45,487 bases of DNA from a virus. Taxonomy: Duplodnaviria; Heunggongvirae; Uroviricota; Caudoviricetes. Position numbers: made by a program. The DNA lies in IMG/VR virus record IMGVR_UViG_2872185964_000010. One strand, written 5' to 3'. How positions within the stretch are numbered: position 1 is the first letter of the stretch; every line of letters begins with the position of its first letter. Positions 41,901 to 44,900 of this stretch are shown here, one piece after another.

Positions 41901-44900
41901 GGGGTCGGACCGGTATGCAGTGAACTACATATTGCCCCGTCAACGTATTACCACTGTCAGCAACAGCGACATCATCCTGATAAACGCAGTGCCCGTGCGC
42001 AGCGCGATGACTGGCTGAAGAAAGAGATACTGCGCGTATACGATGGGAATCATCAGGTATACGGTGTGCGTAAAGTCTGGCGTCAGTTGTTACGGGAAGG
42101 TATCAGAGTGGCCAGATGCACTGTGGCACGTCTCATGGCGGTTATGGGACTTGCCGGTGTTCTCCGGGGTAAAAAGGTCCGTACGACCATCAGCCGGAAA
42201 GCCGTTGCCGCAGGCGACCGCGTAAACCGTCAGTTCGTGGCAGAACGACCTGACCAGCTGTGGGTGGCTGATTTTACTTACGTCAGCACATGGCAGGGCT
42301 TCGTCTATGTGGCGTTCATCATTGATGTGTTTGCCGGATACATCGTGGGGTGGCGGGTCTCATCGTCCATGGAAACGACATTCGTGCTGGATGCTCTGGA
42401 GCAGGCGTTATGGGCCCGTCGACCGTCCGGCACGGTCCATCACAGTGATAAAGGTTCTCAGTATGTATCGCTGGCCTACACACAGCGGCTTAAGGAAGCC
42501 GGATTACTGGCATCAACAGGAAGTACAGGCGACTCGTATGACAACGCGATGGCGGAGAGCATCAATGGTCTTTACAAAGCGGAGGTAATACACCGTAAGA
42601 GCTGGAAAAACCGTGCAGAAGTGGAACTGGCCACACTCACGTGGGTGGACTGGTATAATAATCGACGATTGCTGGAAAGGCTGGGCCATACTCCTCCGGC
42701 AGAAGCAGAAAAAGCTTATTATGCTTCCATCGGAAACGATGATCTGGCAGCCTGAGTTCACAGATAAAACACTCTCCAGGAAACCCGGGGCGGTTCAGTC
42801 AGCACGTAATTATTTTATGTGATGGCGCATTCGTTCTTTATGCGCAATATCGAGACGGTGAGTTTTTTGATGTTGTCCGCAATGGTGAGGAGTTCTTCGA
42901 AACGCAGAGCCGCAATGTAACCCACTGGATACCGCTACCGGAGCCGCCGCAGGAGGTAAATTAATGAACAACTTAATGACAACAAAACAAGTCGCCGAAT
43001 TCTGTGGCGTTTCAATATCGACGGTGCTTCGCTGGAACAGCGTAAACCGGAGAACTGGCAAGAAATACAGACCAGACTTTCCAGATCCTGATATTAAATC
43101 CTGCCCAAATAAATGGGCATCACAAAAGATTTACAGGTTTGCAGGAGTCATTGAGTAATATGCCTTAGATCAGATGTAAGCTGACACACCACTATGGCAC
43201 AGAGTCAAACCTAATCTAACTACCTGCTCTGTGCCAAAAGAAGATACTACTAACATAAGTATAAAATAATCAACGGGACACAGCTCATCTGTACTACTCC
43301 ACAAGCGGGATAAGTTTTTTACCTGTGTCTTCAAAGAATGAAAACGAAGACCAGCGGTAAGTATATAAAAAAGCCACTTTGCCTGCATGTTCTTCGATAG
43401 CTTTTTTTAAATATGACTTGCGTTTACTGACTTCTGGAAATTTATCCGAAAAGATAACTATTGCTCTTGATGATAGTCCACCACCATTCCGCATAAAGAG
43501 AGTAAACTCACTCAATCTAAGCATATTGAAATTTGCACAATTCGCTACATCATTATCAAACTTAGCAACTATACTTTTTATTTTGTCATACAGACTGACC
43601 ATATCCCTAAAAATATTTTCATCTGCCAACTGAATATTTCTTTCATTCAACTCTGTTATATATTTATTATCATCCACTATTCCAATAGGATATCGAGCAT
43701 TTAAAACTATATCTCGAGACGCAACTTTCAATAACTTCAGTTCGTCAACGGTTAATGGCAAACCTAAATCAACAGCCATACAATCAAGTTTATGCCCATA
43801 ATTACAAAACTCATTTTCAATAGCTTTTTTTCTCGCACCGAGATTCATTAGAAGAATCGCTGACTTTAACAACATTTCAAAAGCATACCCCAACATAAGT
43901 CTGCTAGTTTGATCAGTTGCCGATGCGATATCGATGTATTCATGAACAATAGGAGATTTCTTACTTGCTGCCCGAAGCAATTTTTTGTTTCGCTCACCTT
44001 CACTTCTCAACAGCTTCGCAGATAAATACAGTTTTTTAGACTCTGTTAACCAAGCCTTTCGATCAAATATACCTTTCCCATTTTTCTGCGTGATTATCTC
44101 GCTCTGCATCAATAACTCCTATGTTATTAGAACCAAACCTGCCACTAATCAATTGCAAATCTCGTCGCTGTTATTTTGACCAGACATTACATTGTCTCCA
44201 TTTGTAAAATACCACTTAACTAACTTGAATGAGAAATTGTAAGTATTCCGACAAAACAGACTATCAGTTGGGGTCTGAGCTAGCACAAGTAATGATCGAT
44301 TCAACCCTCTCCCACCACGCCTGGTAGGCTTTACGCTGTTCTTCTAGATAATCGCTCTTGTCATAAACCTGCCAAACCCCTGGCAGTTTATGGCCGAGCA
44401 TTATTTCTGCAATATGAGGAGCAGTAAGATCAGAAAAGTTTGTTCGTGCTGTTCGCCTCAAATCATGAAGAGACCAATGAGGGAATTGATACCCCAAACG
44501 CCGCCATGCGTACTGCATTAAATTGTAAGGCAGCGACTGCAATGATGTTCGACCAACGGGTTCCCTGCTTCCTTCCTTAGTAAAAAGCATATCGGAACCA
44601 TTGTTCATAGAGATAGCGTTCTTTATAAGCTCCTCCACCGGTTCAATAATGGGCCTCTTTAGCGGTTCGCCTGTTATCTCCCCAGTCTTATGTCGTTCTG
44701 GTGGTACAGTCCATACCTTATTAATGAAATCAAAATCGTCCACCCTGGCAGTAATTAGCTCTGAACTACGGCAGCCAAAATGCAGCAATAGCTTAATGAA
44801 GGCCCGGTATTTAGGAACCATTCGAGAACCATCGATCGCAGCATAAAGGATTTTAATTTCATCATGTGTCAGAAACCGTTTCTTCTGACCTTTACGGATA

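Follow-up and report, generated by a model that had tools for sequence, protein, structure and literature searches.

Many HEPN families bear an Ex3[KR] motif, and the classical PF05168/DUF86 HEPN proteins are the toxins of MNT-HEPN toxin-antitoxin modules (Anantharaman et al., PMC3710099). The same study described two families, AbiV and AF0298, which lack the motif histidine and keep a basic residue or arginine together with a conserved histidine upstream, and it proposed that this second conserved histidine, N-terminal to the motif arginine, could form an alternative active site (PMC3710099). HepS, a solo HEPN abortive-infection protein from the lambdoid siphovirus prophage Gifsy-1 of Salmonella, is a tetramer at rest, is activated by a siphovirus tail-tip protein and then cleaves the anticodon loops of transfer RNA (tRNA) (PMC13043305). 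Tha of Staphylococcus aureus prophages is reported to be a second solo HEPN abortive-infection protein (PMC11087260). Here, we analysed a gene in the IMG/VR virus record IMGVR_UViG_2872185964_000010 (a stretch of 45,487 nucleotides, hereafter the window), which is an mEp460-like lambdoid siphovirus prophage integrated beside yjjG. The product of this gene falls outside every curated model against which its membership was tested, yet it resembles the solo HEPN abortive-infection effectors, and among them the alternative-site subtype. We give about even odds to the reading that the prophage acquired the gene horizontally as a single-gene cargo (a ‘moron’) and that it encodes a HEPN-like defence protein of the abortive-infection type.

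Like AF0298 (2hsb) and AbiV, the gene product is without the motif histidine and keeps an upstream histidine and the basic residue of the motif. AF0298 is about half its size, the elongated first hairpin and the C-terminal alpha/beta domain being the gene product's own. AbiV and AF0298 come from Lactococcus or archaea, whereas the gene product comes from Enterobacterales prophages and satellites, and the AbiV model PF18728 (HEPN_AbiV) was unmatched among the best 25 of 44 families listed for 83 diverse family members (mean identity ~20%), which served as our conservation set throughout. The classical PF05168 HEPN proteins (TT1696, 1ufb; TM0613, 1o3u; ST0689, 1wol) have an Rx4H motif and ~130 amino acids, whereas the gene product has 271 amino acids and no such histidine. 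The nucleotidyltransferase gene that adjoins the HEPN gene in MNT-HEPN modules was found in none of the E. coli, Klebsiella, Enterobacter, Pantoea, Serratia and metagenomic contexts.

HepS and the gene product are alike in that both are partnerless single genes carried as lambdoid prophage cargo, with a HEPN fold recognised from structure prediction alone. However, the HepS family was delimited by a length of at most 250 amino acids, a canonical Rx4-6H motif and PSI-BLAST homology to STM14_3211 (PMC13043305), and the gene product, with its 271 amino acids, its additional domain and no canonical motif, is set apart by that description. Dsr1 occupies the same slot in the same orientation, just downstream of the integrase gene; there is no sequence or fold relationship, and the likeness is positional only. 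Furthermore, the integrase-proximal hotspots of P4-like satellites carry defence cargo (PMC9122126, PMC13586616), and of eight uncharacterised loci picked at random in P4 hotspots, six conferred phage protection (PMC13586616), a proportion that serves as a useful prior for a defence function.

Predicted structure and putative active site

The gene, the two domains of its product and the codons of the predicted site are as follows:

43294..44109, minus strand: cargo gene, 271 amino acids plus stop, delimited by its open reading frame (ORF), RefSeq and homologue conservation
43552..44070, minus strand: N-terminal all-helical domain (~residues 14-186), predicted to be a diverged HEPN-like bundle with an elongated first hairpin
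43297..43551, minus strand: C-terminal alpha/beta domain (residues 187-271), with conserved R207-x-G209-G210, R215 and W253 and no known fold
43864..43878, minus strand: codons of E78-M-L-L-K82 (Ex3K motif), with E78 in 82/83 and K82 in 83/83 family members, aligned with AEKAxK of PF05168
43792..43794, minus strand: codon of H106, conserved in 83/83 and aligned with GH of PF05168, a candidate alternative catalytic histidine
43687..43695, minus strand: codons of R139-Y140-P141, conserved in 82/83, 83/83 and 83/83, aligned with RYP of PF05168

AlphaFold2, supplied with 28 homologues, gave a confident two-domain model with a predicted local distance difference test (pLDDT) score of 85.9 and a predicted template modelling (pTM) score of 0.82, in which seven helices over residues 17-186 are followed by a small alpha/beta domain. 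Helices 17-47 and 55-88 form the elongated first hairpin of the N-terminal domain, and the C-terminal domain is modelled as strands 193-198, 202-208 and 215-220, helices 231-250 and strands 257-268. The top Foldseek match of the model was AF0298 (2hsb; probability 0.99, E 0.09), the best structural matches of the N-terminal domain were classical HEPN domains, and this domain has the up-down four-helix core with HEPN topology that characterises the superfamily. A preliminary description of the locus, made from the DNA alone, had held that no fold could be assigned by eye; this stands in that there is no sequence match, but a diverged HEPN-like domain can be proposed from the model and the motifs, and many abortive-infection systems use this fold as their effector.

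Searches of Pfam, NCBIfam, PHROGs, PADLOC and PDB sequences returned no significant match to the gene product, and in sensitive profile searches no library family recognised it. The hits that did appear were at chance level (BRCT, DASH_Duo1, Parvo_NS1 and REase_II; within PADLOC, REase_II with E 0.0012 over 40 residues and PDC-S19 with E 0.0067). Judged by its sequence, the protein belongs to no assignable family. When the 83 family members were scanned one by one, PF05168 (HEPN) was the top Pfam family, with matches in 7/83 (E <= 5, best E 0.0028, all below threshold), the other families reaching at most 2/83 each among the best 25 of 44; the PADLOC and NCBIfam scans of the same members gave no family matched by more than two. 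The window protein itself has no PF05168 match at E <= 1 and stays below the gathering threshold.

The two families were also compared with each other. A hidden Markov model built from 120 PF05168 proteins reached at least 5 bits in 8/141 family proteins, against 2/1,410 shuffled and 1/141 reversed sequences. Aligned by hhalign with 120 PF05168 proteins, the family scored 19.1 (P 0.025-0.03), compared with 12.8 +/- 2.4 for the column-shuffle control (z ~2.7), in which 4/200 shuffles reached the observed score; against an alignment of three HEPN sequences the result was E 0.2, with the C-terminal half alone aligned. In the hhalign register, W20, E78, K82, G105-H106 and R139-Y140-P141 fall on the W, AEKAxK, GH and RYP of PF05168, and the residues placed on this signature are the invariant or near-invariant residues of the family. 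Besides those in the list above, W20 is present in 83/83 members and Y75 in 82/83. We regard the profile-profile link as supporting evidence, not proof, and consider the assignment of the N-terminal domain to HEPN probable, at about three chances in four.

One family member, P0044 (491 amino acids, L018 378..1853), has an extra C-terminal region of ~230 amino acids that contains ‘RNKHVAH’ and gives a weak, anecdotal match to HEPN_AbiU2 (E 0.017), the one other HEPN-type match among the families listed for the 83 members. Here a second HEPN domain, of the canonical kind, may have been fused on.

The predicted active site of the gene product consists of E78-x3-K82, H106 and R139, which would be the ‘alternative active site’ configuration of AbiV and AF0298. 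The second acidic residue of HEPN domains, which lies in Ex3[KR], is found here in E78-x3-K82, and H106 provides, at the sequence level, the conserved histidine N-terminal to the motif arginine that marks the AbiV/AF0298 variant. The Rx4-6H motif at the start of the last core helix, RYPnAH in the PF05168 consensus, is absent. Across the 83 members, positions R+5 to R+7 (144-146) show no enrichment of histidine and hold mostly P/A/V, S/K/N and D/E/N.

Both the absent canonical histidine and a HEPN homology that stays below threshold would be expected of a non-catalytic HEPN-like or generic helical-bundle protein that is not a ribonuclease (RNase) and has another accessory role in the prophage, for example the binding of RNA or nucleotides, a regulatory or anti-defence role, or superinfection exclusion through attachment to a protein of the phage or the host. 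We consider such roles unlikely, because E78, K82, H106 and R139 are kept in 82-83/83 members at ~20% identity, which is the pattern to be expected of a functional polar site and not of a scaffold, and because the contexts in which the gene was seen are defence hotspots.

The cargo slot and the homologues

The gene lies between the integrase gene int and the excisionase gene xis, 154 nucleotides downstream of int on the same strand and convergent with xis. Sister yjjG prophages have the same xis and int and differing cargo downstream of int. The parts of this slot in the window, and the alternative cargo found in sister prophages, are:

44264..45487, minus strand: tyrosine integrase gene (int), with a P4-type arm-binding domain, at the prophage end adjoining yjjG
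44153..44263, minus strand: AT-rich spacer between int and the cargo gene, defined by promoter scan and sister-prophage alignment
44110..44152, minus strand: leader of the cargo gene, which includes AGGAG at 44120..44116 and moves with the gene, as seen in the alignment of upstream-flank DNA
42964..43158, plus strand: excisionase gene (xis), encoding a 64-amino-acid helix-turn-helix (HTH) protein (phrog_1553, E 5.9e-35)
L024 681..4508: dsr1 in the int-xis slot of E. coli EC6030, in the same orientation as the cargo gene and 182 nucleotides after int
L014 3995..5248: gene for a 417-amino-acid protein in the slot of a sister prophage, no Pfam or PADLOC match
L016 4028..4747: gene for a 239-amino-acid protein in the slot of a sister prophage, no Pfam or PADLOC match
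L013 4619..5614: gene for a 331-amino-acid protein in the slot of a sister prophage, on the opposite strand, no Pfam or PADLOC match

The borders of the cassette are tight, ~45 nucleotides upstream and ~17 nucleotides downstream of the gene. With variable content, conserved flanks and a known defence gene among the alternatives, the int-xis slot has the properties that define a defence hotspot; the proposal of an integrase-proximal cargo slot is thus borne out, the slot being variable and holding the validated defence gene Dsr1 in a sister prophage. The gene is intact and, as the preliminary description had stated, clearly lower in GC than its surroundings, at 35.4% (30.9% at third codon positions) against 50.7% for the window, 45.7% for int and 42.1% for xis. 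We take this low GC as the signature of recent acquisition. The product contains 12.2% leucine and is rich in lysine (10.3%) and isoleucine (7.4%), as had been claimed, whereas asparagine, named alongside them, is merely moderate (5.5%).

The window protein is identical to RefSeq WP_001190315.1, a ‘hypothetical protein’. Its gene is rare: of 5,426 complete E. coli genomes, 19 carry it at >=98% identity, always in the same arrangement, and tblastn matched it to none of 50,697 phage records and none of 72,556 plasmids. Close relatives form 31 clusters with 46-80% identity and full-length conservation, all of them from Enterobacterales (Klebsiella, Yersinia, Lonsdalea, Raoultella, Serratia, Citrobacter, Pectobacterium, Enterobacter and Pantoea). 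When 1.84 billion representatives were searched exhaustively with HMMER, 112 full-length relatives of ~260-300 amino acids (counted as representatives at 50% clustering) were recovered, 60 of them at E < 1e-10; the members sampled came from Pantoea, Shewanella, a metagenome-assembled genome of the Phycisphaeraceae (Planctomycetota) and the Paracoccaceae (Alphaproteobacteria). Every named relative seen carries the annotation ‘hypothetical protein’. The accession WP_001190315 does not occur in the full text of the papers searched by accession, and neither it nor WP_016570101 occurs in the searched portions of the DefensePredictor supplements.

An 80%-identical homologue in Klebsiella is carried by a P4-like satellite at ssrA/smpB, where it occupies the published P4 defence hotspot, with AlpA/DUF927-primase on one side and the integrase on the other. 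Its neighbours are a Mrr_cat nuclease, Abi_alpha (PADLOC PDC-S47, E 6e-36) and an uncharacterised protein of 214 amino acids, so that the link to P4-like elements drawn in the preliminary description holds for this homologue. In two Enterobacter genomes, a pair formed by Mrr_cat and the homologue stands beside a resolvase-like recombinase ORF (recombinase assigned by eye). The Mrr_cat nuclease, of 302-316 amino acids (L009 7052..7960; L020 7015..7965), was identified by Pfam with E 2e-10 and has a weak PADLOC match to PDC-S02. Its gene lies 36-41 nucleotides upstream of the homologue, on the same strand, both in the Klebsiella P4-like satellites and in the two Enterobacter genomes. Homology between the E. 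coli cassette and these copies begins in the leader at 44110..44152, where their upstream Mrr_cat gene stops, ~45 nucleotides upstream of the ATG, from which we conclude that E. coli carries only the second of the two genes. Mrr_cat and the HEPN-like gene could form a two-gene module in some lineages.

Elsewhere the neighbours differ. Homologues in Pantoea, Serratia, E. asburiae and K. pneumoniae lie in integrase-bearing islands with other neighbours, and the distant member P0034 (30% identity) lies 77 nucleotides downstream of BREX pglX-pglZ-brxL on a metagenomic contig (L023 841..9954). No partner gene was conserved across the roughly ten contexts examined, and the protein should therefore act alone. 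A pair of DUF8209 and DUF1493 genes recurs beside homologues in Pantoea, Enterobacter and Serratia islands, with DUF1493 alone in Serratia:

L003 6841..7607, L008 9037..9821 and L006 6752..7078: DUF8209/DUF1493 genes beside homologues, no PADLOC match

The close spacing of Mrr_cat to the homologue and the start of the E. coli homology at the Mrr_cat stop codon, together with the toxin role of the classical PF05168/DUF86 HEPN proteins (PMC3710099), would suit a toxin or addiction module that stabilises mobile elements, the E. coli gene being the solo remnant of a Mrr_cat-linked pair. We find this improbable, as all 19 E. coli genomes carry the gene alone and intact, at 98-100% conservation, the homologues in Pantoea, Serratia, K. 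pneumoniae and E. asburiae likewise have no Mrr_cat, and no nucleotidyltransferase or small antitoxin-like partner is conserved. An immunity or accessory role in inter-bacterial polymorphic-toxin systems instead of an anti-phage one, to which the DUF8209 and DUF1493 neighbours in Pantoea, Enterobacter and Serratia and a PAAR-motif gene ~3 kb from the K. pneumoniae copy could point, is very improbable indeed, since those loci also hold integrases or resolvases and resemble mobile islands, the gene has no toxin gene beside it in the E. coli, Klebsiella P4-like and BREX contexts, and a two-domain size of 271 amino acids with a conserved polar site is unusual for an immunity protein.

Gene boundaries, flanking genes and the inverted repeat

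The longest form of the ORF, 43294..44112 on the minus strand, starts at TTG and encodes 272 amino acids. The codon after this TTG is ATG (44109..44107), with the ribosome-binding site AGGAG at 44120..44116, 6 nucleotides upstream, as read from the sequence. The gene was placed at 43294..44109 because RefSeq annotates the 271-amino-acid form and 27/27 aligned homologues begin at its ATG-encoded methionine. The length of 272 amino acids given in the preliminary description therefore holds for the ORF from TTG and not for the annotated start, and the span proposed there, 43170..44260, contains the gene together with both intergenic spacers. Taken as a whole, its observation of a real AT-rich gene beside the integrase was correct, and the interpretation as an intact acquired gene in a cargo slot stands; what has to be given up is the AlpA identity of the neighbour, and the inverted repeat is no part of the cassette. 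In the spacer between int and the gene, alignment with sister prophages showed backbone conservation over only ~20-60 nucleotides beyond the int stop. A small antitoxin ORF in this spacer was considered and rejected, the sole ORF there (44149..44304, 51 amino acids) overlapping the 3' end of int and being unconserved elsewhere.

The int product has the Pfam domains Arm-DNA-bind_3 (PF13356), Phage_int_M (PF22022) and Phage_integrase (PF00589). On the other side of the gene, the neighbour that had been described as an AlpA-like regulator is instead the prophage excisionase (phrog_1553, E 6e-35) and not specifically AlpA: Phage_AlpA was not among the Pfam matches of the xis product, which were only sub-threshold HTH_17/MerR. 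The xis gene is the final gene of the early-left operon (yfdP, yfdQ, yfdR, ..., DUF551) on the plus strand. It begins directly after the DUF551 stop and is unannotated in both RefSeq genomes inspected of the 19 (MY732 and ETEC-2265).

Positions 40901..43300 of the window are 100% identical to E. coli MY732 apart from an insertion sequence (IS) element at 41488..42797. This IS3-family element of 1,310 bp, with overlapping transposase ORFs (41542..41868 and 41865..42755) and a 3-bp target duplication, splits the DUF551 gene, which is intact in MY732; from its length we take it to be possibly IS629. At the other end of the prophage, every genome that carries it has an annotated pseudogene fragment of 69 nucleotides between int and yjjG (L001 8915..8983), a fragment that may mark the attachment site as a gene end present in duplicate.

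Between xis and the cargo gene lies one further feature:

43195..43236, no strand assigned: perfect inverted repeat, with arms of 10 + 10 nucleotides at 43195..43204 and 43227..43236 and a 22-nucleotide spacer

The perfect 10-bp repeat reported with its 22-nucleotide spacer just downstream of the gene is real, at coordinates one base inside those first given (43194..43237), and lies 58 nucleotides beyond the stop codon. It does not belong to the gene cassette. The DNA shared by E. coli and Klebsiella ends ~17 nucleotides past the gene stop, leaving the repeat outside the shared segment, and the repeat lies within xis-proximal backbone that is 86-92% identical in hundreds of E. coli prophages without the gene. 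The right arm is degraded in relatives by uncompensated changes. Because it lies outside the cassette and in the backbone of prophages that lack the gene, we regard the repeat as a backbone feature near the junction of backbone and cargo.

We doubt that the repeat works as a bidirectional transcription terminator or serves the cargo gene as a regulatory site. Its perfect stem of 10-11 bp between convergent genes and an RNA fold of -17.4 kcal/mol (z -4.5 on the plus strand) would suit such a role. Against it stand a loop of 20-22 nucleotides, the absence of a U-tract beside the repeat on both strands and a terminator scan that called none there, so that the combination of GC-rich stem, short loop and U-tract typical of intrinsic terminators is not found; the position of the repeat outside the segment that moves with the gene; and the uncompensated changes of the right arm in prophages with other cargo. 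Of perfect inverted repeats with arms of 10 bp or more and spacers of 3-40 nucleotides, the window holds six distinct ones, where block shuffles gave 2.1 expected and a maximum of nine, and the repeat is not statistically exceptional. The five others, with spacers of 6-29 nucleotides, lie at 1647..1685, 11837..11868, 16825..16873, 25161..25186 and 38588..38626. A terminator was rejected for want of a U-tract and of co-mobility with the gene, and an attachment-site arm because the repeat is not co-mobile with the gene and the attachment site is on the other side of int. We saw no good evidence of function for this repeat.

Proposed function and significance

We infer that abortive-infection-type anti-phage defence is the most likely function of the gene, by analogy with the systems described above; the non-catalytic, toxin or addiction and inter-bacterial alternatives are all less well supported. 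In the mechanism that we propose, the lysogen would produce the protein in an inactive form, and detection of some component of an infecting phage would fall to either the C-terminal domain or the extended helical hairpin. The HEPN-like domain, probably dimeric, would then cleave or sequester RNA, be it tRNA, messenger RNA or ribosomal RNA, by means of E78, K82, H106 and R139, and this would stop translation and phage production.

Several observations weigh against a HEPN-like defence protein. The canonical catalytic histidine of Rx4-6H is absent, and that ‘alternative-site’ HEPN domains are active has, in the literature too, the standing of a prediction (PMC3710099). No match to a HEPN model reaches a curated threshold and the profile-profile signal is weak (P about 0.02-0.03); PDB sequence and family-profile searches gave no match even at E 10, and no defence model of PADLOC-DB v2 matches the gene product. 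One distant homologue stands alone among housekeeping genes. Furthermore, the promoter scan revealed no recognisable promoter for the cargo gene: the spacer between int and the gene contains no convincing sigma-70 promoter (4 sites against 4.4 expected), and the sole consensus-like site on the gene's strand sits within int (44375..44348).

More tentatively, the gene could represent a new single-gene anti-phage system, with a non-canonical E/K/H/R site in a HEPN-like domain that is switched by a C-terminal sensor of new fold, and that travels as interchangeable cargo of lambdoid prophages, P4-like satellites and BREX-adjacent islands in several phyla; we consider this full version possible, with the odds rather against it. 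The gene is a well-placed and reasonable defence candidate that would not surprise a specialist. If it does not protect, it is one more orphan prophage gene. If it does, it would establish a compact single-gene defence family that is unrecognised by Pfam, NCBIfam, PHROGs and PADLOC v2, its C-terminal domain would add a new fold with a sensor or regulatory role, and it would provide a test case for the idea, put forward in 2013, that HEPN domains without the Rx4-6H histidine have nuclease activity (PMC3710099). At the level of the prophages, the int-xis slot of yjjG-integrated lambdoid E. coli prophages is a defence hotspot, and the uncharacterised genes found in it, at least three besides Dsr1, are further candidate defence genes.

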